Below, piece by piece: positions 2,498 through 43,973 of a stretch of 64,000 nucleotides of DNA; position 1 is the stretch's first letter; the number at the start of each line of letters is the position of its first letter. Under the pieces are notes generated by a model. It worked only from the letters and a program-made list of their open reading frames with translations. It made no database searches and had not been told where the DNA came from. Source of the stretch: Candidatus Bathyarchaeia archaeon (GTDB lineage: Bacteria > Patescibacteriota > Microgenomatia > PFEM01 > JAFGMK01); NCBI GenBank assembly GCA_035529595.1, contig DATKWK010000017.1:116970-180969 (forward strand), read 5' to 3'. The position numbers and the translations under genes are program-made.

Positions 2498-2749
2498 TCA
2501 CTCTTTGCAAGCTCTTTGCCGGTGAATGATTCGGTAAATAATAATTTTCTTGCTTTTATCGAGTTCGTAAATAATTCGATAAGGCCAGGCACGAAGTGAC
2601 CAAAGACCCTTTAATTTGCCGAGTAATGGTTTACCTGAAAAAGGCTCAGATTGGAGTATTTTTAATTTTTTGATGACTTTTCTTTGTTCTGCTTTGGCAA
2701 GATGAGCGAAGTCGTTTTCAGCTTTTTCGGAAAGAATAATTGTCGGCAT
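2498..2749 (-). CDS. RelE/ParE family type II toxin
   Basis: 83 aa with a C-terminal RAWPYRIIYELDKSKKIIIYRIIHRQ pattern typical of RelE/ParE. It lies immediately downstream of an antitoxin-like gene. Confidence 0.55.
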   Translation of the reverse strand: MPTIILSEKAENDFAHLAKAEQRKVIKKLKILQSEPFSGKPLLGKLKGLWSLRAWPYRIIYELDKSKKIIIYRIIHRQRACKE

Positions 2750-2755
2750 TAGATA

Positions 2756-3022
2756 TTATAGCTGGTATTTTTTCTCAAGTTTCTTAAGAGTAATATACTT
2801 TCCTTTTCTGATTTGCCTCCTGGCTTCTTTAATGGATTTTAAAGCATCAGGAATAGAAAGAACCTCCGCAGTTTCTTCAAGAGATTCAAGTTCTTCAAGA
2901 CTCATAACTACCGCCTTGGGCTTTCCGGAAACGGCAACCACAAACCTTTTTAGTTTCTTTTCTACCTGGCTAATAAAGGTTGGTAAATTGGATCTGAAAT
3001 TAGATATTGCCACTGTTTCCAT
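2756..3022 (-). CDS. Phd/YefM family antitoxin
   Basis: METVAISNFRSNLPTFISQVEKK...VVMSLEELESLEETAEVL is the canonical Phd/YefM N-terminus. The track ORF runs to 3058; the internal Met at 3022 is the more likely start. Confidence 0.5.
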   Translation of the reverse strand: METVAISNFRSNLPTFISQVEKKLKRFVVAVSGKPKAVVMSLEELESLEETAEVLSIPDALKSIKEARRQIRKGKYITLKKLEKKYQL

Positions 3023-3188
3023 TGTCTGTAATGTACGATATTTTGTACAAATTGTCAAGGATTAAATTCTTTACGGACCAAACTTTTGGTTGAAAATATA
3101 AAATACCGCTGTACCGTACCTGTTCCACATTAGGGGTGGAACTTTATTGTCAGTAAAGTAAATTTGACAAAAGCCGTTTTGTATTGTA

Positions 3189-3509
3189 TTGTCATTTACA
3201 ATGAAAGACGCCGCTAAACCTAAACCGGTTAAATTTGATTGGAATGAAGGCAATAAAGAAAAAAATTGGCACAAACACCGGGTTGATTTTCGGGAATGCG
3301 AACAGGTTTTTTTTAATCAGCCGTTAAAAATTTTTTATGATAAAAAGCACTCGCAAAAAGAACCAAGATTTGTCGCTTTCGGGAAAACCGATAAAAACAG
3401 AAAACTGATGATAGTTTTTACTCTCAGAGTAAACAGAATTAGAATTATTTCGGCCAGAAACCAAAGCCGAAAAGAAGGGAAAATCTATGAGCAAAAGCAA
3501 AAAAATTAA
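3189..3509 (+). CDS. brnT: BrnT family (DUF497) ribonuclease toxin
   Basis: FDWNEGNKEKNWHKHRVDFRECEQVF matches the BrnT FEWDxxKxxxNxxKHGVSFEEA signature. It overlaps the downstream antitoxin ORF. Confidence 0.55.
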   Translation: MSFTMKDAAKPKPVKFDWNEGNKEKNWHKHRVDFRECEQVFFNQPLKIFYDKKHSQKEPRFVAFGKTDKNRKLMIVFTLRVNRIRIISARNQSRKEGKIYEQKQKN

Positions 3510-3765
3510 ATCAATTCCCAGATTTGAGAACGAAGATCAGGAAAGGGAATTTTGGGCGAAACATGACGTCACCGATTATCTTGATCAATTCGAACCGATA
3601 GAGTTTGATTTATCGGAATTAAAACCTTCAACGAAGTCGGTAACCATCAGATTGCCTGAGTCTCTTTTGGCCGCCTTAAAAAGTCTAGCTCACCGGAAAG
3701 ATATTCCTTACCAGTCGTTAATGAAGGTTTTTCTGGCAGAAAGAGTTAAGCAAGAATTCCGCTAA
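3487..3765 (+). CDS. brnA: BrnA antitoxin (RHH/CopG-like)
   Basis: A 92-aa protein overlapping brnT by 23 nt. The C-terminal TIRLPESLLAALKSLAHRKDIPYQSLMKVFL is BrnA-like. Confidence 0.5.
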   Translation: MSKSKKIKSIPRFENEDQEREFWAKHDVTDYLDQFEPIEFDLSELKPSTKSVTIRLPESLLAALKSLAHRKDIPYQSLMKVFLAERVKQEFR

Positions 3766-3801
3766 AACAACACCCATCACGAATTAATCTTCAGCCGTAG
3801 C
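3764..3801. repeat. 38-bp direct repeat, copy 1 (aaaacaacacccatcacgaattaatcttcagccgtagc)
   Basis: It starts inside the brnA stop codon. A second copy at 4670..4707 is identical except for a tc/ct dinucleotide swap. Confidence 0.8.
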
Positions 3802-4015
3802 CAGAAATCCATTCCTTTTCTGAAAAAAGACTTGGTAAGTTGACTTGTTTTTTTATCTGAAAGAAAGATTAGATGTCAACCTTTCAAGAAATAATAAATA
3901 CCGGCGTGTCGTATTTGTTCCACATCGGGACGGAAATTGTCTGAGAGTTCTATTTACTTGATCGGGTAATTGTGATTTGAAAAAACTTTGCTATAATAAG
4001 CATCAAGGAGAAAAG

Positions 4016-4255
4016 ATGAATAAACGGATCGAAATCAACCCCCAAGTTTTAGTCGGAAAGCCGGTTATTAAAGGAACCAGAATTCCGGTCTATCTGATTT
4101 TAAATCTTTTAGCTCATGGCTACGACTTCAAACGGATTATCAAGGCCTATCCGATTTTGACCAAGGCCGATATTCGGGCGGCGCTTGAATACAGCGAAAA
4201 GAGACTTAAAAGAGAAAAGGTTTTCCCTTTAAGTTTTAAACCAGTTTCAGGATGA
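4016..4255 (+). CDS. DUF433-family protein (antitoxin-like partner of DUF5615)
   Basis: [30 protein letters not shown] is typical of DUF433. A strong AAGGAG ribosome-binding site precedes the ATG at 4016. Its stop overlaps the next start (ATGA). Confidence 0.5.
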
Positions 4256-4617
4256 TCAAATTTCTTCTTGATGCCAATCTCTCTGTTGAAACAGCCCAAT
4301 TTTTAAGAGACCGGAAATTCAATGTTAAAAGTCTTCTGGAAGAGAATTTAGGCCAAATTTCTGATCAGGAAGTAGCTAAGATTGCTTGTAAAGAAGGTCG
4401 AATTATTATTACTCACGATCTTGATTTTGGGGAAATTTACCACTTCAAGGAAGAAGAAAAGCTAGGTATTTTAATCCTCAGGCTGAAAGACCAAACAGTT
4501 GAAGCCGTTAATAAAATCTTAGGTGAATTTCTTAAAAATAAGATAATTCAAAAACAAAAACTTGATCACTCTTTGATAATTCTTGCTGAAAATTCATATC
4601 GAACCTACAAGTCCTGA
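4252..4617 (+). CDS. DUF5615 / Mut7-C-like PIN-fold putative RNase toxin
   Basis: [11 protein letters not shown]...[11 protein letters not shown] pattern. Translationally coupled to the DUF433 gene. Confidence 0.45.
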
Positions 4618-4669
4618 TAGTAGTATCGCTTTCAGCCTCAATACCGGAGCGGAAGAGACTTAAAAAAAT

Positions 4670-4707
4670 AAAACAACACCCATCACGAATTAATCTCTAG
4701 CCGTAGC
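4670..4707. repeat. 38-bp direct repeat, copy 2
   Basis: Matches 3764..3801. An inverted pair ccggagcgg (4644-4652) / ccgctccgg (4719-4727) flanks it. Confidence 0.8.
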
Positions 4708-4801
4708 TATAAATTAACCCGCTCCGGGTGTTGAGTCTTGTATCCCCTCAGGGTAATTCCTGCCGCAGTTGGCAAGTTTTACCCGTCGGGGAGAAGGTCA
4801 G

Positions 4802-5722
4802 TTAGGGTGGGCAGGGACACCAGTCAGGAAAACTGGTGCCGTAGGTGTCTTCCAGTTCCACGCTGGCCAGATCGGCTTGGGTTGGGCTCGATGCGGTGTG
4901 GAAGAACAGCACTGGCGCCCAGGCCTGGGGGTCGACCACCGTCCAGTGGACATGGAAGTCCACAGCGTCTGCCGGCCTCACGTCCCGGTACCACCCAGAC
5001 ATCATTTGATACTGGAATGGTTGGGATCCGTGAGGGACTTCATCTATCCGTGCCCCTTCCCCGGCTGCGAACCAGACCCTCGTCCAGAGACCGCTCCAGG
5101 GGCCCTCTTCCATTCGAACCGTCAACTTGCCGCCGGTTTCGGAGCCAGACAGCTCTAGATAGTTGGCATTGTCCTGCCAGAAGACCCTCCAGACTAATGT
5201 GTCGCTCCAAGCGGAGGGCGGACCGTCGTCCCACTCACCACGGACCCGAAACCAGAAAGTGCCGAACGGTCGGATTAGGTCGACCCAGTTGTGTCCAACG
5301 AACTGGATTTCCTGCCACGTCTGGCCCTCATCCACCGACTCCTGGAGGCGGAAGTAGTCGAAGATCTCCTCAGTGCTAGGGTCGTAGTACTGCCAGAAAA
5401 GGGATACTTCAGTGGAGCCATTGACATCGTTCCACCACTCCGGCCGCCAGGGGAAGTTCTTTCCCATGAGGGGGAAATAGAGAGTGGTGACTGGCGTAAA
5501 GGTGATAGGCGCGGTGGCGATGGCCACGGGTGTCTCTGATTCGGGCTCCTCTTTGGGACGGACGATCCAGCCTCGCTCAGGATTAACCGCTTCCCATCCT
5601 TCGGGAACGGATGGCGGAGTCGGTTCTTGAGCCGAGGCGTGGGTGCCGCAGAACGCGATGATCACCAGCCCCAGCGGGATGGCGATCGCGGCAACGATGT
5701 TGAGCCATTTTTTCTTGTTCAT
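4802..5722 (-). CDS. secreted Trp-rich FN3-like protein encoded on a GC-rich (foreign-composition) segment
   Basis: The segment ~4740-5720 is visibly GC-rich (~60%) against ~40% flanks. The product MNKKKWLNIVAAIAIPLGLVIIAFCGTHASA looks like a signal peptide, followed by an FN3-like W..Y..YRL/FRV pattern. The start is taken at the Met with the signal peptide. Confidence 0.4.
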   Translation of the reverse strand: MNKKKWLNIVAAIAIPLGLVIIAFCGTHASAQEPTPPSVPEGWEAVNPERGWIVRPKEEPESETPVAIATAPITFTPVTTLYFPLMGKNFPWRPEWWNDVNGSTEVSLFWQYYDPSTEEIFDYFRLQESVDEGQTWQEIQFVGHNWVDLIRPFGTFWFRVRGEWDDGPPSAWSDTLVWRVFWQDNANYLELSGSETGGKLTVRMEEGPWSGLWTRVWFAAGEGARIDEVPHGSQPFQYQMMSGWYRDVRPADAVDFHVHWTVVDPQAWAPVLFFHTASSPTQADLASVELEDTYGTSFPDWCPCPP

Positions 5723-6313
5723 GTGTCTCTCCTGAAGTGGGTTATGTGGCTGACGCTTTCCGGCCAAGCGATTCCTCTTGGAGAATGGGTGACTAGTCCT
5801 TTCCTGATCTTTCCTAAGGATCAAGAAAACGAAATCTCCAAGCTGCCGGAAGCAGAAAGGGTAATATTTAATTAAAAGCCAAAACTGCGACTCACCTCGG
5901 AGGAGCCAAGGTCGTTGCCTTGTCACCGTCCGAGGTGTTTGGGCGCTTTCTTAAAAAGTGCAAAGTTGGAAATTACTCCCTCTGTTTCCGGTAGCTTCAA
6001 AGATTTTTCTCCAAGAAACCCTAGTTAACTGACCATGTCAAAGTGCTTCTTGCCGAAAAGAGCCCTTTTCCGGCTGCTTTAATAGCCGGTCAAGATGATC
6101 TTAACCGCAAGGAAAGAGGGAAATGATTATTCTGTCTTTCCTTATGGTTAAGGCAATCAAAAACAAACCCGGTTTTAGAGGTTTATCTTTTGATCTCTAA
6201 AACAGCCTTATTATAGTTCAAACAAAGCCAAATTACAAGTACTATAGGGTTTTTGAAAACAGCTTTACAATTTATGATATGATATTCTCTAGAATAGAAA
6301 TTCATTTTTTGCT

Positions 6314-6813: not shown

Positions 6814-7105
6814 AAATGAAGAAAAAACCTATCGAATTATTCTTCCCAGTAAAGGTCGAGGTTTAAAGGAGATAAAAAGGCTTTATAAAAGAAGAGAGAG
6901 ACAAGTAGAAAAGGCGATTAAAAAACTTCAAAAGTTTCCCACAAACATTAGCCAAAAAGGAATTGAAAAACTGAAAAACCCCATTTTTGGCCAATATTCA
7001 ATTCGAGTCGCTGCTGGTGATAGGATATTTTATGATGTTAATAGTCAAACCGGAGAAGTTTATATTTTACGGGCAGGCAAGCACGATATTTACAAGCGAT
7101 TATAG
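6791..7105 (+). CDS. ParE/RelE family toxin
   Basis: KTYRIIL...IKRLYKRRERQVEKAIKKL...NPIFG...YSIRVAAGDRIFYDVNSQTGEVYILRAGKHDIYK matches the ParE/RelE fold pattern. Confidence 0.5.
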   Translation: MLKRMSLKNEEKTYRIILPSKGRGLKEIKRLYKRRERQVEKAIKKLQKFPTNISQKGIEKLKNPIFGQYSIRVAAGDRIFYDVNSQTGEVYILRAGKHDIYKRL

Positions 7106-7717
7106 ATTGATCCTCAAAAGATCGGTGTAAATCGGGCCTTGGGGAGTCAGTTGGCTTTTAATCAAAGCGACTTGGTTGATTTGAAACGACCATTTTCCCG
7201 GCAGTTGGAACTGGCTTAAAAACCGGCCGAACTCCTTTTTTTGCCCTGGCTTTATTTTTCGCAAACGGGCGATAGTTAGATGCGGGATAAAGGGTTTTGA
7301 ATCAAAAGGAATTTTTTCCTGATTAAGTTTTTCTCTTATTTGGCTATTGATCAGATTTATTTTTTCAATTTCTCCGGTCAAGCCGATCCAAATGATTTTG
7401 GGGAAATCCGGGTTGGGAAAGGCGCCTAACGGGGTTAGTTTAAGTTCAATTGAACTATTCACCTCAGAGGAGTCATGGTTTCTCCGCCGACTGGCGGATT
7501 CAGCCTGACACCTACGAGGTGTTAGGGTATTTTTCATAAGCTTGGCAGTTAGCTCCGCTTGTTCAGGGCTGATATCGGCAAAAAAAATCAGGGTCAAATG
7601 CAGATTTTGTCTTTTAACCCAGGTTGCCTTTACTCCTTTCTGCCGGAGCTGATTCTGGATTTTCTCGAGCCGGTCTTTAATTTTTTCCGGGATTTCTAAA
7701 GCAATAAAAGCTCTCAT
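7100..7717 (-). CDS. thpR: RNA 2',3'-cyclic phosphodiesterase (2H phosphoesterase, ThpR/LigT)
   Basis: Two H-x-T-x motifs (HLTLIFF and HLTIARL). A ~25-aa GC-rich insertion lies between the two halves. Confidence 0.6.
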   Translation of the reverse strand: MRAFIALEIPEKIKDRLEKIQNQLRQKGVKATWVKRQNLHLTLIFFADISPEQAELTAKLMKNTLTPRRCQAESASRRRNHDSSEVNSSIELKLTPLGAFPNPDFPKIIWIGLTGEIEKINLINSQIREKLNQEKIPFDSKPFIPHLTIARLRKIKPGQKKEFGRFLSQFQLPGKWSFQINQVALIKSQLTPQGPIYTDLLRINL

Positions 7718-37916: not shown

Positions 37917-38306
37917 ATGCTGAAAATTTCTAGAAGATTAAATAAAAAAGCCCTGATTCTTTCTTTGATTCTGGATGGATTTTTGATATTATTTGCCAGC
38001 CAGTGTCTTTCTCTCGGTTTCGTCTTAGACTGTTACGGTCCGGGCTGCAATCGCCAATGGTGCGATCATTGGGCCTTCCTACTCTTTGATTTCTATCTGG
38101 TCATTTACATATTATTAACTGTCATGTTTATAGAATTACCGGGTGGTGAATTGCTTGGTCTGCTGGTTTGTTTGGTGATAATTCTCCCAGCCAACTACTT
38201 AGTTTCCCTTTTAATTATCAAATTAGTAAATCTTACTTTTAGTAGATTTAGGTTGTTATTGGCCAAACGGGGTGACAAATTACGAAAATTACTGCCCAAA
38301 AAGTAA
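37917..38306 (+). CDS. hypothetical membrane protein
   Basis: Hydrophobic. No motif. Confidence 0.25.
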   Translation: MLKISRRLNKKALILSLILDGFLILFASQCLSLGFVLDCYGPGCNRQWCDHWAFLLFDFYLVIYILLTVMFIELPGGELLGLLVCLVIILPANYLVSLLIIKLVNLTFSRFRLLLAKRGDKLRKLLPKK

Positions 38307-39155
38307 GTTTTTCCTATAACATCCCGGGTAACCGATTTCTTTACCGCCGAAAGATTTTTTAAAGTGGGAGAATCCAAGCCAGGACTTTTGGGGAAATCGT
38401 AGATCAAAGATACCTTCAAAGTCAAAATTCCGGCAGCCTTTATTTTTGGCGATTTTAATTGCTTCCCAAACCAGACCGTATTGGGCCAGGAGCCGGCGGC
38501 CTTTTTTGGAAGTAAAAGCATAAAAATAATAAGCGGTTTGGCCGGCCAGAAGAATAATCGTTCCGGCAATGATATTCGATTGTTTGTTTTGATAAGCAGC
38601 CAAGAAGATTGCCTTTTCCGAAAAGGAAGATTTCAGAGATCCGATGGTTTTAAAAGCAGGAATAATCAGCTGCCAGCCGGCGGCTTTTTTCCAGGAGCGG
38701 TAAAAACTTAATATTTCATCATCTTGACTGCAAATTAAGGTTTTAAGATCAGGTTTTTGCCGGAGTTTTTTTAAGACTAACCGGGTATCCTTTTTCAACT
38801 GACGAGTAAGTTTATAGTCACTTTGGTTTAGATCAAGAACAACTGTTTTAGTCGGTAAAAAAGGTGATTTGGAAATTTTATAACCGTATTTTTTATAGAG
38901 ACTGGTTTCTGGTTCTTGGTCAAGATCAGGTTCGATATAGGCAAAAAGCGCTCGGTATTTACGGCTGATTTTTCCGATTGTTTCAGGAGAAGGTAAATGT
39001 TTCGGCCGTTGAAGCTTCAGGATGGAAAAAGGGGTGAGGGGGATCTTGCGGATAAATACCTGGACTCCTTCTGTCTTTTCCACCTGCCAGCCGATTTTTT
39101 CTAAATAAACAGCGTAGTTTGGGGATTGTCTTAGGTCAAGGGGGTTGGAAATCAT
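38289..39155 (-). CDS. FemAB family peptidyltransferase (FemX-like)
   Basis: Shared blocks with the ORF at 42921: KNKGCRNFDFEGI / KRNGCKSFDLWGS and FKKSFGGK / FKTGFGGQ. Length and pattern fit FemAB. Confidence 0.5.
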   Translation of the reverse strand: MISNPLDLRQSPNYAVYLEKIGWQVEKTEGVQVFIRKIPLTPFSILKLQRPKHLPSPETIGKISRKYRALFAYIEPDLDQEPETSLYKKYGYKISKSPFLPTKTVVLDLNQSDYKLTRQLKKDTRLVLKKLRQKPDLKTLICSQDDEILSFYRSWKKAAGWQLIIPAFKTIGSLKSSFSEKAIFLAAYQNKQSNIIAGTIILLAGQTAYYFYAFTSKKGRRLLAQYGLVWEAIKIAKNKGCRNFDFEGIFDLRFPQKSWLGFSHFKKSFGGKEIGYPGCYRKNLLFGQ

Positions 39156-39305
39156 CGGGATAAATTTGCCCTTTCTTTATTTCTAAAGTAACCTATGCTT
39201 AGGAAATAATAGCATGGTTTGGATGTTACGCCAAAACTAGCATTAAACGAAGTCGATTCGCCTAAAAAAGAATTATCGGAGAAATTTGTACAGTAATAAG
39301 CTAAT

Positions 39306-39737
39306 ATGAATTGCCCATTCTGCGATCCTAAAGTAATTGAGAAGCAATCCTTGTATGAAACTGAAAACATTCGGATTATTTATAATATTTGTCCAGCAAA
39401 TAAAGGCCAGTGTTTAGTTGTGCCTAAAAGGCATGTTTTAAACATTCGCGAATTGACAAAAGATGAGTTGGTAGACTTAATTTTCTCAATTCAGCTGGTT
39501 TCTTTAAGGTACGATCAGTATTTTAAACCTGCTGGCTTCAATTATGGCTTCAATGAGGGCAGATATGCCGGACAGATGGTAGATCATTTCCACTTTCACA
39601 TTATGCCTCGTGTCGATGGTGATAAAAATCGATTGCCTGAACATCACCTTTTCCATAGAGACCCCAAAACTAGGCGAAACCTAACATTCGAAGAAATAGA
39701 GCCTTTTGTTACCGAGCTTAAAAAACTATTTCGTTAA
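39306..39737 (+). CDS. HIT family hydrolase
   Basis: HFHFHIMPR histidine triad. Confidence 0.75.
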   Translation: MNCPFCDPKVIEKQSLYETENIRIIYNICPANKGQCLVVPKRHVLNIRELTKDELVDLIFSIQLVSLRYDQYFKPAGFNYGFNEGRYAGQMVDHFHFHIMPRVDGDKNRLPEHHLFHRDPKTRRNLTFEEIEPFVTELKKLFR

Positions 39738-39765
39738 ATCTACGGACAATTCATCTGCGTTTTTT

Positions 39766-39785
39766 CACACCCGATGTGGTTTTCT
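39766..39785. repeat. 20-bp direct repeat R1 (cacacccgatgtggttttct)
   Basis: Identical copies at 40651..40670 and 41561..41580. Confidence 0.8.
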
Positions 39786-39997
39786 CCTTATATGTAGTTC
39801 ACTTACTTGTATTACTTTACCCAAATTGTTTACTTCGCTTTGTTGTTAAGGTAATACCACAAAGTTCGTTTAGAACTTTGTATGTACTGGGGCGTTATAA
39901 GATATGAATTATTGCTATTTAGATTTTTCAGCAAACTTTTTGTGAAATAAAAAGTAGAAGAGGGGCGCCAGAAACGGAACTATAGATATTTATCTTT

Positions 39998-40549
39998 TTA
40001 AAGCAAATCTCTAGGTTGAAAATAAATAACTGAAGCAGCTATAAACATAAAACAACCCATAACGAAAAACATTAAATCAAAACTATTTAAGGTTACCAGA
40101 AAACCTCCCATTAAGGCTCCAAGACCAGTTATAAAACTGGCCATCATTTCCCAACTTCCCCAACCAGACGCTGCTTTACCTTTACTTAGGTGATTAGAAT
40201 AAAGACCATCGTATGCTGGACTACCAATAGCACTGGCAACAGCTAAAATAAGTTGAATAGACAATAAATGAACAAACGAAGAAACAAAAATATAACCGAT
40301 ATAGGCAAGTCCGGTTAGTATATAGCCGATTACCATGGCAATTTCTGGTTCTTTCATTAAATCTTCTTTTTTTCCAAAAAAGTACATTAAAATACCAGTT
40401 GCAAAGGCATATAGAGCAACTGCATATCCTGCCTCTAATATTCCTCCTCCAATATCTTCAATAAAGATTGCATAAATTGGGCTAAACATCATTGCTGCAA
40501 TCTTGCTAAAAGCGCCTGCTACTAGCATTATCTTTAAAGCCTTATTCAT
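39998..40549 (-). CDS. 6-TM membrane protein resembling half of an MFS transporter
   Basis: Six hydrophobic helices. The 183-aa length is about half of a 12-TM MFS protein. Confidence 0.3.
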   Translation of the reverse strand: MNKALKIMLVAGAFSKIAAMMFSPIYAIFIEDIGGGILEAGYAVALYAFATGILMYFFGKKEDLMKEPEIAMVIGYILTGLAYIGYIFVSSFVHLLSIQLILAVASAIGSPAYDGLYSNHLSKGKAASGWGSWEMMASFITGLGALMGGFLVTLNSFDLMFFVMGCFMFIAASVIYFQPRDLL

Positions 40550-40650
40550 GTCAGTATCAGTTTATCATAATTTATTAAAATATTAATTTTTACAGTACAG
40601 AAATTTACCATCAAGCTCTCTTTCTTCGCTGAAAATTTATAATATTACCC

Positions 40651-40670
40651 CACACCCGATGTGGTTTTCT
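40651..40670. repeat. 20-bp direct repeat R2
   Basis: Lies immediately upstream of the HIT 3' fragment. Confidence 0.8.
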
Positions 40671-40677
40671 TTTAGAA

Positions 40678-40833
40678 CATCTTCACTTTCATGTCATTCC
40701 TCGCTATCAAGATGATGGGCTGTCCAGCATTCACTTGTTTCATAGAGGTCCTGAAACTAAAGATAAGTTAAATCTCTCTAATGGAGAACTGCGACCTATT
40801 GTAGAAGAATTTAAAAAGCTGTTTCGAAAATAA
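40678..40833 (+). pseudogene. 3' fragment of a second, divergent HIT gene (about the last 50 codons, no start)
   Basis: Translates to HLHFHVIPRYQDDGLSSIHLFHRGPETKDKL...FKKLFRK*, collinear with the C-terminus of the intact HIT gene. DNA identity is only moderate. Confidence 0.55.
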
Positions 40834-41005
40834 TGCAGTGAGTTATACTCTGCGCTCCTGTTAGTCGCTTGCCGCGCTGCGCTTTCACAAAAATGCTAAT
40901 TTTGAAATTTTAGTATTTTTGTTCAGGTCATCTAACACGGTATATCTAGCTCGCTTGTTGCACTCGCTCGACCCGAATTAGCCAATGTTGTAAAATAGAA
41001 GACAA

Positions 41006-41596
41006 ATGAGTTTTTTTGATTTTCTAGTTTCTGGTTCTGTATTCCTAAGCCTTTTAGCGCTAATTTTTTATGGTTCTGTGTGGTTGCTAAAAGAAAGCAC
41101 CAAAAAGTTATTAGAGAAAGAACTTGAGAAGCATAAAAATAATCTGTCCAAAGAGCTAGAAGTTTACAAAAAAGAAATTGATCTTAGCTATCGACATCAG
41201 TTAAGTCTTCAAGATAGAAGCAGAAAGCTTTTTGAAGAGTTTTCAAACTCACTAGAGGAAATTTACAAAACGAAAGGGGATGAATTATCACTCAGGTTAA
41301 ACAAGCTCTTTGGACTTTTGGCCCTTTACGCACCTGACAAAGTTTATAGGGTCTTGAGAAAATCCTTGGACGGGAAGGCACTACCTAATGAAGTAAAGCC
41401 TCCGATATATTTTGCTTTAAGAAAATCACTTTTTGGTGCCAAGTCAAAGCTAAAAGAGGGCGATTTGATTAAACATATTAAGGCTAAAAGATTAATGCTA
41501 AAAGATAGATACTTATTAAGTAGACATTGGCTAACTTCAGATATACCGATAAGATTTTTCCACACCCGATGTGGTTTTCTCAATACCGATGTATAG
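41006..41596 (+). CDS. hypothetical membrane-anchored coiled-coil protein
   Basis: N-terminal transmembrane segment and a Lys/Glu-rich coiled coil. The ORF reads through repeat R3. Confidence 0.3.
   Translation: MSFFDFLVSGSVFLSLLALIFYGSVWLLKESTKKLLEKELEKHKNNLSKELEVYKKEIDLSYRHQLSLQDRSRKLFEEFSNSLEEIYKTKGDELSLRLNKLFGLLALYAPDKVYRVLRKSLDGKALPNEVKPPIYFALRKSLFGAKSKLKEGDLIKHIKAKRLMLKDRYLLSRHWLTSDIPIRFFHTRCGFLNTDV
41561..41580. repeat. 20-bp direct repeat R3
   Basis: Followed 40 bp downstream by an inverted partial copy, ccacatcgg. Confidence 0.8.
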
Positions 41597-41732
41597 TATC
41601 TGCGCCACATCGGCTGTGGAGACGCTTAAGTTCGGCTAACATACAATTTATTGCACTATGACACAAAAAATTCGAATATACACTAGTTAGGCGATATATT
41701 ACTTAAGAAATTATCGAGATGTTAATGTAAAG

Positions 41733-42011
41733 ATGAGGAAAAAGCTTGCTGTAGCAATTCTTATGTTAATAATTGCAACTCTTTTATTCCTACTGTATAT
41801 GCGATTTGGAGAGGAATTGTATATTAAATACAGATATCCGGATCCTGAATCGTATTGGCATGATTACGACGTGCATTACCAGTTTTGCAATTCTAAAGGA
41901 TATGAGCGATGTCAACCATCAATTATTTGCAAGCAGGAGATGTCGGATTGCCTCTCAGGGTGTATCCGGTCTTGCCTGCCAAAACAAGATAATACGTTTG
42001 GACTGAAATAG
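41733..42011 (+). CDS. small membrane-anchored Cys-rich protein (7 Cys)
   Basis: One transmembrane helix followed by a Cys-rich ~60-aa domain. Confidence 0.3.
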   Translation: MRKKLAVAILMLIIATLLFLLYMRFGEELYIKYRYPDPESYWHDYDVHYQFCNSKGYERCQPSIICKQEMSDCLSGCIRSCLPKQDNTFGLK

Positions 42012-42155
42012 CATTTTTTATAATACATCGCCTAATACGGGCTATACGGTCCTTCGACTCTACTCCGGACCCAAATCCTAGTAGAATTAGGATCGGGACT
42101 TTTTATAGCCCGAAACGTTAAATGAAATAGAAAAAATTTATTATCTGAGTAATTT

Positions 42156-42743
42156 ATGAAAATCACGAAGCTAGAAAAGGTCTACTATTTTACTACAGAC
42201 TTAGTTCTTATTGTTATAGTGCTAATTGGGATTATAGTCAGCTTAATTTCAATAAACAGAAAGGTATCAACGCTTTCTTTCGACTTAGCCAGACATATTC
42301 ATCTGCCGGCATCTCCGACTCCAAAGCCAGATGTTAGGTTCAATCCAATGAATTGGAAAAAATATACGAGCAAGTTATATGGCATTACTCTAAGGTACCC
42401 TCGTGATGTCGAATTTACAGCCTCGCCTCTGTTTGACAAAGAATTTTTAAGCGTAAAAAACGAAAATGGCTATATGACTCTTCAGTCGGGGTGTCGACTG
42501 AGCCAGTTCCCAAACTTTGAAGATCGTGTTTCAGTAGGTGGGATTATGGTTGACAGGTTTTGGTTTTTAAAATCAGGGAGACATAATATATACAAAGCTG
42601 AAGTGGTGATTAAGGAATCACCGAATATTGATAAAAAGGAGTGTATTGATATTTCAATGGGATTAAAACCAGAAAAAGAGGAGGAAACGAGACAGTTATT
42701 TGACTTTATTCTGAACCTTATAGAATACAGGAAGGTAAAGTAA
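42156..42743 (+). CDS. hypothetical membrane-anchored protein
   Basis: N-terminal transmembrane helix. No motif. Confidence 0.3.
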   Translation: MKITKLEKVYYFTTDLVLIVIVLIGIIVSLISINRKVSTLSFDLARHIHLPASPTPKPDVRFNPMNWKKYTSKLYGITLRYPRDVEFTASPLFDKEFLSVKNENGYMTLQSGCRLSQFPNFEDRVSVGGIMVDRFWFLKSGRHNIYKAEVVIKESPNIDKKECIDISMGLKPEKEEETRQLFDFILNLIEYRKVK

Positions 42744-42920
42744 GGAGAATATTTTCTACATCACATAAGAGCGTGTATGCGGTTCAGTCACACCGCTGCG
42801 CTGTGTTGCAAAATTCTTATTCATTAACTTTTTTAAATTAAATGAAAAAAATTGCCGCCGTGATTTTGGAAAATAATCGCGGTGAAATTCTTCTACCATA
42901 AAAGATTCTACTGGATCGGT

Positions 42921-43973
42921 CTATAAGGACAGGCCTGATTTTAGACGGAGCAGTTTCCAACGGAGATTTTCTGCCAGGCGCGCCAAATAGTAAAGCTGAG
43001 GGTTAATTACCAAGTCATAAGTGCCTAGAAATTCAACAATTTGGCCGCCGAAGCCGGTTTTAAACCGGTGCCAGCCAAACCAAGGGTCTTTCGGGTCGGG
43101 GCTAGGTCCGAGGCTTCCCCAGAGATCGAAACTTTTACAGCCGTTTCTTTTACCAAACCTGATTGCTTCCCACATCATGGTATAAGCGGGCATCACTTCT
43201 TGATGCTCACGTGAAGAAGCTCCGTATGGGTAGTAAAGTACGTTATTGAAAACAAATAACACCCAAGCCACGAGAACTTTTTTTTGGTATTTAGCCAAGA
43301 ATAAACGGGCAATTCCGGCCGGATTTAAAATTTTCCACATCTTACGGTGATATTCGGAGCTGTGGGCATAAAACTTTTGCCTTTGGGTCGTTTCATTCAT
43401 AAGCTTAAGGTAAGTTTCAAAAGCAGCCGGAGAATTGTCTTCAATTATTTCGACACCTTTCTTTTGCGCCAGGCGGATGTTGTAGCGGGTTTTTTCTTTC
43501 ATAGCATCCAAGAGTTTTTCTTCCGTTTGTTCAAGGTCAATCTTAAAGGTGTAACGGGTAAACAGTGGCCGTCCCGGTCGGCAGCCATGGGCGGTTAGAA
43601 AATCCTTAATCGGTTGATACTTTTTTTCTGCGTTTCCCGGAATTTCCCGAACCGGTGAACCGACATTTGGTTCCAATCTGATAAAAATCGCTTTTTGTTT
43701 TTCGCCCAGGCTTTTAAGCGAAGAAAGCATTGTTCCGTCCGGCATTGGGCCTTTGGGAAAGTAAATCACATTAAGATTTAGTTGAGGGATCGGTAAGGGG
43801 TGAATTGTTAATTGATAGGCGTTTTTAATTTTTTTTTCCTCAAAGGCACCCAGACGAACGACTTTGACTCCGGTTGTTTTTCTGAATTCTCCCCACTCCC
43901 AAGATTGGAGAGGATGGGTTACAATTTCATTAAATTGCTCCTTTTCTTCGCTGTAAACTTCTCGAACGATCAT
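42921..43973 (-). CDS. FemAB family peptidyltransferase (FemX-like), paralogue of 38289..39155
   Basis: Shares the FemAB blocks listed for the first paralogue. 350 aa. Confidence 0.55.
   Translation of the reverse strand: MIVREVYSEEKEQFNEIVTHPLQSWEWGEFRKTTGVKVVRLGAFEEKKIKNAYQLTIHPLPIPQLNLNVIYFPKGPMPDGTMLSSLKSLGEKQKAIFIRLEPNVGSPVREIPGNAEKKYQPIKDFLTAHGCRPGRPLFTRYTFKIDLEQTEEKLLDAMKEKTRYNIRLAQKKGVEIIEDNSPAAFETYLKLMNETTQRQKFYAHSSEYHRKMWKILNPAGIARLFLAKYQKKVLVAWVLFVFNNVLYYPYGASSREHQEVMPAYTMMWEAIRFGKRNGCKSFDLWGSLGPSPDPKDPWFGWHRFKTGFGGQIVEFLGTYDLVINPQLYYLARLAENLRWKLLRLKSGLSL

Follow-up and report, generated by a model that had tools for sequence, protein, structure and literature searches.

The question raised by this locus is how a run of small, unrelated genes, punctuated by three identical 20 bp sequences, came to lie between two cell-wall genes of the FemAB family. 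The locus is in a 64 kb stretch of DNA (the window) that is part of the 385 kb metagenome contig Ga0307380_10000013 (JGI 3300031539). We conclude that the 3.77 kb between the FemAB genes is an insertion that includes a mobile gene, and we put at about one in two the probability that it represents an integron-like array of small mobile cassettes that has no integrase and has partly decayed.

The island was delimited by comparison with contigs of relatives, here named L007, L008 and L009/L010; other related contigs used below are named L011, L012 and L021. In two of these, L007 and L009/L010, a UvrD-type helicase gene is followed by one FemAB gene (~350 aa), a second FemAB gene (~275 aa), an opposite-strand gene for a UvrD/PD-(D/E)XK helicase-nuclease, and RmuC. 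The gap between the paired FemAB genes is 4 bp in L007, 1 bp in L009/L010 and 3,765 bp in the window. As the pair is directly adjacent in the relatives, the segment from 39156 to 42920, including the HIT-family gene that it contains, is an insertion. In L008 (4676-6150), the same gap is occupied by a single, different gene on the opposite strand, which encodes a 176-aa Cys-rich protein. The original prediction, made from the sequence of the window, of a variable, cassette-like island between FemAB genes was thus borne out. The G+C content of the island is 0.30-0.37 in a composition profile, against 0.40-0.48 in the flanks. No direct or inverted repeat bounding the whole island was found, and the relatives have no repeats comparable to the 20 bp sequence. 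A metagenome search anchored on proteins returned only three distant loci; with no FemAB homologue more than 68% identical, the island could not be compared between strains. The second FemAB gene of L008 has an in-frame TAA, and TAATACGG in L008, which has the look of an attC site, was rejected as FemAB coding sequence with that in-frame stop.

The corresponding bin is labelled Bathyarchaeia at NCBI, and its proteins are named 'Candidatus Bathyarchaeia archaeon'. The nearest homologues of the contig's FemAB gene carry Pacebacteria, Shapirobacteria and Microgenomates names, and the FemAB neighbourhood is conserved in contigs of the Candidate Phyla Radiation (CPR). Judged by its gene content, synteny and nearest homologues, the contig is probably from an uncultured, ultra-small bacterium of the Microgenomates group of the CPR and has been mis-binned as Bathyarchaeia.

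The 20 bp sequence, CACACCCGATGTGGTTTTCT, is present in exactly three exact copies in the window, at 39766-39785, 40651-40670 and 41561-41580, all on the + strand and with start-to-start spacings of 885 and 910 nt. No further copy was found in the window at up to 3 mismatches (none is expected in shuffled sequence), and a scan at up to 6 mismatches together with a k-mer scan added only unrelated sequence. The number and positions of the copies had been predicted correctly, as had their contexts, namely an intact HIT gene with a stop codon 28 nt before copy 1, a start-less and divergent HIT 3'-end fragment directly after copy 2, and the end of an open reading frame (ORF), ORF196, at copy 3, which sits within its 3' end. 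Between copies 2 and 3, identity extends over 21 nt, and a longer alignment (40639-40670 for copy 2) has 28 of 32 positions matching. Beyond the shared stretch, the similarity between the flanks of the three copies is no higher than in shuffles. The copies all stop at the very same base, and copy 2 abuts a gene truncation: the HIT fragment is cut within ~3 nt of the 3' edge of the repeat, and its nucleotide homology to the intact HIT gene runs from base 2 past the repeat. The position in the intact HIT gene that is homologous to the start of the fragment bears no resemblance to the 20-mer. Within the 20-mer is the palindrome CCACA-CCCGA-TGTGG, with 5 nt arms and a 5 nt centre; the outer bases of the arms do not form an inverted repeat.

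Downstream of copy 3 is a fourth, inverted copy of the 15 nt core at 41605-41619, with 14 of 15 positions matching. An inverted partial copy had been predicted here as ccacatcgg; it is present, but it is longer than that and forms a hairpin. The right arm, CCACATCGG-CT-GTGGAGA, completes a 65 nt hairpin with copy 3. The arms are 16 nt long and 94% complementary, and the RNA fold of the whole structure (41546-41636) has a free energy of -34.9 kcal/mol and a z score of -4.0, with none of 200 shuffles as stable. When read against the site design described below, the 20-mer would consist of a CAC-A box, the stem CCCGATGTGG and the first six bases of the loop. The 7 nt sequence GGCTAAC is found on both sides of a 98 nt segment containing the hairpin, at 41529-41535 and 41634-41640.

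The gene whose reading frame runs into copy 3 has moved between genomes. Homologues of ORF196, with 58-73% identity, occupy six or more unrelated neighbourhoods; the genomes concerned carry the labels Microgenomates, Saccharibacteria, Nomurabacteria and others, and this diversity of contexts identifies it as a mobile gene. The homology stops near 41490; the last ~30 aa of ORF196, including the part that overlaps copy 3, lie beyond this point and are read-through. An AlphaFold2 model of ORF196 is low-confidence, with a mean pLDDT (predicted local distance difference test) of 62 and values below 50 in a disordered tail (residues 161-196), and was too low in quality for a fold search.

One of the ORF196 homologues led to a more complete arrangement. 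In L012 (2698-5803), it belongs to a cassette array next to a divergently transcribed gene for a tyrosine recombinase of the Xer type (270 aa), and is the third of four small genes that run head to tail on one strand from 115 nt upstream of the recombinase. L021 (1-2320) includes a recombinase that is 79% identical to that of L012, and has the same layout with different small genes. The recombinase-side sequences of L012 and L021 align as far as CGTCGCCAAGTxACTAG|TT and then become unrelated, with different cassettes. Both therefore have what is expected of an attI, a conserved insertion point by the integrase followed by variable cassettes. This ...ACTAG|TT junction is not present in the window. 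The cassettes in L012 and L021 start with TTxxxx and end with RYYYAAC, one A, an 11 nt stem, a loop, the complement of the stem, NNAC and GTTRRRY. Four sites in the two contigs have this design (R''-A-11 nt...11 nt-NNAC-GTT), and the L012 hairpin at 4092-4241 folds with a z score of -8.1. Cassette starts are more complementary to their own end than to the next box (13 v 10, 14 v 6, 13 v 8 and 14 v 10 of 16 nt), a shift of register that is the expected product of G|TT crossover between cassettes. Taken together, the register shift and the conserved recombinase-side junction give L012 and L021 an integron layout. Junction segments with sharp ends are also repeated within L021, where two that are 571 nt apart are identical at 31 of 34 nt (33 of 37 nt with the next three bases).

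The L012/L021 recombinase is not, however, an IntI. The closest match of the L012 type in PDB is the archaeal XerA (4A8E), and the L012 protein scores 217.8 bits on the TIGR02249 model, against a cut-off of 265. When it is aligned with VchIntIA (2A3V), its residues 179-197 lie opposite IntI residues 183-244, and ~43 residues, the IntI-specific domain, are missing. The family is found in thousands of Patescibacteria.

Further regularities were seen in the cassettes. The cassette coding regions of L012 (3740-5710) contain concentric perfect inverted repeats of 14-19 nt (e.g. 4263-4281 with 4629-4647), and within ORF196 (window 41051-41504) are inverted-repeat counterparts of 12-20 nt with 85-100% complementarity. 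These concentric repeats are far above chance, as though a cassette were able to fold along its entire length. The window and L012 have the motif CTCGCTC(G)ACCC(R)AATT in common (window 40957-40977, before the start of the ORF196 cassette; L012 5775-5793, after a unit encoding a Cys-rich protein).

When the window was scanned for the full design, with AAC relaxed to AA[CT], a single site was returned, between ORF92 and ORF195 in the island (42030-42123), and none of 400 shuffles gave any. Other parts of the design are present around it (Table 1). A left half-site upstream of ORF196 ends at A|TTAGCC, the start of the ORF196 cassette, and left arms of the same style follow the ORF196 homologues in L011 and L012. 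The start of the ORF196 unit, TTAGCCAATGT (40978-40988), is perfectly complementary over 11 nt to ACATTGGCTAA (41524-41534) at the GGCTAAC box of the unit. An 11 nt segment of the left half-site also has its complement at 41539-41548, on the opposite side of ORF196. The start of the ORF92 cassette, GTTAGGCGATATATTA, is complementary at 14 of 16 positions to its own end, TAATACATCGCCTAAT (42021-42036), and at 8 of 16 (hand count) to the next start. The same comparison does not discriminate for ORF196 (11 v 10) and is weak for ORF195 (8/16). A cgctgcgct-type motif had been predicted to be common to two non-coding stretches, at 40850-40890 and 42790-42815. We found it in both, and the spacers that include them, at 40846-40895 and 42762-42815, appear from their sequences to be two related members of the attC-like set. 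Within 2 kb, the island thus contains one full site, the copy-3 hairpin and three left-arm elements, and whether it is counted as a cluster of attC sites lacking an integrase (CALIN) hinges on accepting non-canonical sites. Nothing relevant was found in Rfam at the gathering score or at E values up to 1, and the option of a covariance model from the four sites was set aside as too narrow.

A type II toxin-antitoxin cluster is found elsewhere in the window (2498-4736). It includes ParE/Phd, a BrnT/CopG-type antitoxin and DUF433/DUF5615, and has the appearance of a further cassette array of this type. A 46 nt direct repeat (42/46 identical) is present at the antitoxin stop codon (3763) and, 906 nt away, after DUF5615 (4669). 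Only the second copy closes, forming a 66 nt hairpin (4671-4736; AACACCC...GGGTGTTGAGT) that ends in GTTGAGT. The start of the DUF433/DUF5615 unit at 3839 is complementary to its own end at 4677 at 13 of 16 positions, versus 6 for the next. The 65 nt hairpin at copy 3 resembles this 66 nt hairpin in size and in the motif xACACCC, and the units bounded by repeated left arms are 865 and 890 nt between the 20-mers and 860 nt in the toxin-antitoxin cluster. Successive junctions that share an arm are therefore characteristic of these arrays.

We propose that cassettes carrying ORF196, ORF92 and ORF195 accumulated between the two FemAB genes, and that the HIT gene and the remains of a second HIT gene and of a gene for an MFS transporter were probably cassettes too. 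The three 20-mers would be copies of the left arm of one hairpin site, the right arm of which was kept only in the third, and they would mark joins between modules made by recombination supplied in trans. Two of these joins would have cut genes. The 46 nt repeat of the toxin-antitoxin cluster and the junction repeats of L021 may be parallels. We infer both that an Xer-type recombinase did the joining and the position at which strands crossed over. An integron-like array lacking a nearby integrase was among the original suggestions for this locus, and it is the one that fits best, agreeing with the cassettes and attC-like architecture of L012 and L021.

Several findings weigh against this proposal. 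No recombinase is encoded within the 64 kb window, as had been predicted; a tblastn search for tyrosine recombinases returned none. The L012-type recombinase lacks the IntI-specific domain and may simply be a chromosomal Xer. Left arms that are duplicated and end in the loop are not what canonical G|TT crossover at R' would give, and such a crossover also leaves the two copies without a right arm unexplained; copies 1 and 2 make no hairpin of their own and have no right-arm partner downstream. The site design was drawn from just four sites in two contigs, and the relaxation of AAC to AA[CT] was made after the window had been seen. Looser scans, for GTT/AAC end complementarity or for loosely defined hairpins, were not above background, and the claim of sites in the window therefore rests on the full design and on context. 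Exact scans with the 20-mer gave 0 matches in each of three public collections (genome, viral and metagenome), and as it is absent from them, neither its mobility nor the existence of other copies can be demonstrated.

Table 1. Features of the island and its borders (positions are those of the window)
Feature	Position	Strand	Evidence or remark
FemAB-family gene, 288 aa, backbone, left island border	38289..39155	-	Pfam FemAB E 3.5e-11; orthologue directly after the other FemAB in L007 and L009
Inserted island, 3.77 kb	39156..42920	.	Synteny versus L007 and L009/L010; composition profile
Intact HIT-family gene, 143 aa	39306..39737	+	Pfam HIT E 3.4e-20; within the segment that relatives lack
20-mer copy 1, putative solo left arm, CACA-CCCGA-TGTG hairpin + GTTTTCT	39766..39785	+	Begins 28 nt past the HIT stop codon
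MFS transporter N-terminal half, 183 aa, 6 transmembrane segments	39998..40549	-	Pfam MFS_1 E 1.9e-15, profile positions 2-172 of 347
20-mer copy 2, putative solo left arm	40651..40670	+	28/32 identical to copy 3
Start-less HIT 3' fragment, 53 aa + stop	40672..40833	+	BLASTP versus intact HIT: 47% identity over 57 aa, E 4e-14
Structured spacer (d) after the HIT fragment, motif GTTAGTCGC...CCGCGCTGCGCT...CAAAAAT	40846..40895	+	Resembles spacer (vi); read from sequence
Element (iii), ATCTAAC-A-CGGTATATCTA-GCTCGC..., left half of attC-like site	40930..40983	+	Design as after ORF167 in L011 and L012
ORF196, N-terminal transmembrane segment + all-helical body	41006..41596	+	Mobile CPR family, homologues ~167 aa
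R''-like box GGCTAAC of the ORF196 cassette	41529..41535	+	Recurs at 41634-41640
Imperfect ~90 nt hairpin: left arm copy 3 (41561-41580), right arm inverted core (41605-41619)	41546..41636	+	RNA and DNA folds
R'-type box GTTAGGC, ORF92 cassette start	41686..41692	+	Complementary to the cassette's own end
ORF92, small Cys-rich protein, N-terminal hydrophobic segment	41733..42011	+	No family found
Complete attC-like site (v), GCCTAAT-A-CGGGCTATACG...TTTATAGCCCG-AAAC-GTTAAAT	42030..42123	+	Full-design scan; hairpin fold
ORF195, membrane-anchored near-orphan	42156..42743	+	No family found
Spacer (vi), ACATAAG-A-GCGTGTATGCG-GTTCAGTCAC..., degenerate left arm at 42766, compact hairpin	42762..42815	+	Motif shared with (d)
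FemAB-family gene, 350 aa, backbone, right island border	42921..43973	-	Pfam FemAB E 4.3e-40; orthologues 63-68% identity; synteny

The cargo is a mosaic of the HIT gene, the N-terminal half of an MFS transporter gene, the HIT 3' fragment and three orphan membrane-anchored ORFs. All of the island proteins are singletons at 90% identity. The original view that the cargo belongs to no recognisable family is true of ORF196, ORF92 and ORF195, which have no match in Pfam, NCBIfam, PHROG or PADLOC, but not of the 183-aa protein, which is the N-terminal half of an MFS_1 protein. No MFS-like reading frame continues downstream of it, and it is most likely a truncated gene. The exact sequence of ORF92 is not in the protein collection searched. 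A search of 1.84 billion representatives gave four relatives of ORF195 at E <1e-10, with 33-38% identity, and 15 when E values up to 0.001 were admitted. A suggestion that the cargo might have exclusion, immunity or toxin-like functions found no support, the orphan ORFs being without PHROG or PADLOC matches. The intact HIT gene is cargo of the island and not a target for integration. In its 5' region, bases 39295-39316 show 73% complementarity to the segment immediately ahead of copy 1 (39744-39765). A 13/14 nt inverted match to the HIT 3' coding sequence (39689-39702) was seen at 40606-40628, 22 nt to the left of copy 2. The possibility that it is a third, inverted HIT remnant was rejected as too weak (p ~0.008 in a single test; ~4 of 500 shuffles).

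Elsewhere in the window, a G+C-rich patch in a region of ~40% G+C lies directly after the terminal hairpin of the toxin-antitoxin cluster (4738-5930) and includes a 374-aa minus-strand ORF without a Pfam match. Strong hairpins bounded by ...TAAC and GTTA... are found at 7424-7527 (104 nt, GCCTAAC...GTTAGGG, inside an ORF at 7100-7717) and at 6099-6153 (55 nt), and may be further sites or small insertions. Between 58590 and 60740, many degenerate GGAGTYGG-type repeats are found in consecutive minus-strand ORFs, in what looks like low-complexity coding sequence for repetitive proteins.

Other explanations for the repeats were considered. The 20-mers could be remnants of a palindromic element of the miniature inverted-repeat transposable element (MITE) or repetitive extragenic palindromic (REP) type, unrelated to the arrival of the cargo, with one complete copy of ~98 nt at 41536-41633 flanked by a 7 nt duplication and two truncated copies. 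The GGCTAAC direct repeats at 41529 and 41634 flank the hairpin as such an insertion would require, removal of the segment leaves a plausible 59 nt site (GGCTAAC...GTTAGGC), and solo arms are common when elements of this type decay. Yet palindromic elements of this type are normally numerous, and no other copies were found at any stringency in the 64 kb or in the public collections; the ends of the 98 nt unit are only loosely inverted repeats, and all three copies, one of them abutting a gene truncation, share the identical end base. We regard this account as unlikely. Serial integration of small circles at a 20 bp core, by an integrase encoded elsewhere and generating classical attL and attR sites, would account for direct repeats that number n+1, are identical and enclose unrelated DNA, and for the original downstream partner being kept only by the last copy, as in tandem arrays of integrative mobile elements exploiting Xer (IMEX). 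In the version originally predicted, integration was into the 3' end of the HIT gene, and the displaced HIT 3' end beside copy 2 is in keeping with it. That version failed, as HIT is within the insertion and not a backbone gene, and the intact gene, at the corresponding position, has no core like the 20-mer. The units, at 865 and 890 nt, lack an integrase, as do the whole 64 kb, and the other attC-like spacers are left unexplained. GC skew is positive across the entire window, which is thus without a replication terminus, making a dif-type site unlikely; the idea of Xer acting on dif at the terminus was rejected on this ground. Overall, serial integration at the 20 bp core is quite improbable.

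A hotspot for illegitimate or short-homology recombination, e.g. after DNA uptake, with the host patching ends together at 20 nt of microhomology and no dedicated system involved, would be in keeping with the two truncated genes, with cargo that is a mosaic of unrelated pieces, with the different insertion at the same spot in L008 and with the lack of a nearby recombinase. Three identical junctions with one end point, together with the parallel in the toxin-antitoxin cluster, are unlikely to arise without a specific site, and the other spacers follow a design shared with the recombinase-adjacent arrays; we regard the hotspot as a quite improbable explanation. That selection has instead kept the 20-mer identical for a function as a signal, either an intrinsic terminator or an operator, is very unlikely. 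Copies 2 and 3 do fit a loose terminator consensus (a 5 bp stem with 3 G-C pairs and a T run) and copies 1 and 3 are shortly past gene ends, but hits in a scan with this consensus were not above shuffles (5 found, 5.8 expected) and the hairpin of the 20-mer is weak. Moreover, identity extends to the loop and the tail, where a terminator would not need it, no + strand gene precedes copy 2, and the other 60 kb contain no copy of the 20-mer. An artefact of assembly, in which sequences sharing a 20- or 21-mer were joined into a chimera, can be almost wholly discounted. The length of the repeat is near k-1 for k=21, but final k values in assembly are far above 21, all three copies have one orientation and coherent gene-end contexts, and the HIT gene and the 350-aa FemAB gene are each found on five contigs of two size classes (385,069 and 385,351 bp recorded), with the same neighbouring genes (JGI, NCBI, ENA and Logan). 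Retro-insertion of terminated transcripts and targeting by class C group II introns were both rejected, as no reverse transcriptase or intron sequence is present.

If the island is an integron-like array, a broader proposal can be made tentatively, and we consider it possible rather than probable. CPR bacteria may have an integron-like capture system of their own, made up of an Xer-type recombinase without the IntI domain, a conserved attI-like junction and a separate class of folded RYYYAAC-A-11 bp...11 bp-NNAC-GTT sites. Cassettes passing between phyla would seed integrase-less arrays, and a second, non-canonical mode of joining within the loop would leave duplicated left arms, as seen in the three 20-mers and the 46 nt repeat. 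The larger prize would be the recombinase-linked arrays of L012 and L021 and not the window itself. The genomes of CPR bacteria are tiny, and little is understood of the routes by which genes are gained and traded among them; the searchable literature yielded no account of integrons or attC sites in CPR genomes. If functional, these arrays would be a gene-cassette platform driven by an Xer-like enzyme. They would then be relevant to an old proposal, the origin of integron integrases from Xer recombinases, and would explain the variable islands of small membrane or secreted proteins in these episymbionts. Cassette arrays on mis-binned contigs, such as that studied here, could also pass for archaeal integrons.

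Among known systems, the island shares some features with Xer-dependent modules, which include IMEX, such as the CTX/TLC arrays at dif, and the pdif modules of Acinetobacter plasmids. In both, small modules lacking a recombinase are associated with short repeated sites that have a palindromic centre, one complete site ends a tandem array, and the recombinase is, or for the island would be, of the Xer type. However, the palindromic arms of the 20-mer are 5 nt and not part of the usual 11-6-11 arrangement, and pdif modules are bounded by inverted sites, not by direct ones as in the window. The two ~11 bp arms around a 6-8 bp centre that define a dif-like site, which normally lies at the replication terminus, were not found here. 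Islands integrated in tandem into the 3' ends of genes, whether for tRNA, tmRNA or proteins, likewise have direct repeats and a displaced, divergent 3' end with an intact copy upstream, but here the 'target' HIT gene is within the insertion, no repeat is present at the homologous position, there is no integrase and the units are far smaller, so the island does not belong to this class. Nor does it belong with IS200/IS605 or other HUH elements, as no gene for TnpA, TnpB or Rep was found in it and the three copies are followed by sequences without significant similarity to one another.

The closest comparison is with integrons and CALIN. A CALIN is defined in IntegronFinder as a cluster of attC sites without an integrase (Cury 2016; Néron 2022), the threshold being two or more attC sites separated by less than 4 kb, and both integrons and CALIN have been reported for Archaea (Ghaly 2022, PMC9668308). 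The archaeal integrons reported in that study have IntI enzymes with the additional domain (PMC9668308); no IntI with this domain, as needed for a complete integron, is present in the window or in L012, where the recombinase, like that of L021, is Xer-type, lacks ~43 residues of the IntI domain and falls below the TIGR02249 cut-off. The sites also differ from those of integrons in having one unpaired A opposed to four bases (NNAC), an 11 bp inner stem and end complementarity over 20-33 nt, not 7, and solo left arms recur in the window with the junctions in the loop. The likeness is nevertheless extensive. Cassettes of ~0.5-0.9 kb, usually with one small gene each, are arranged head to tail; an imperfect hairpin bounded by ...AAC and GTT... 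is at the cassette end; and a G|TT crossover would account for cassette starts that match their own inverse box. Toxin-antitoxin cassettes are found elsewhere in the window, and integrase-less arrays are common. In L012 and L021, as in an integron, the array extends from a conserved junction beside a divergent tyrosine recombinase gene.

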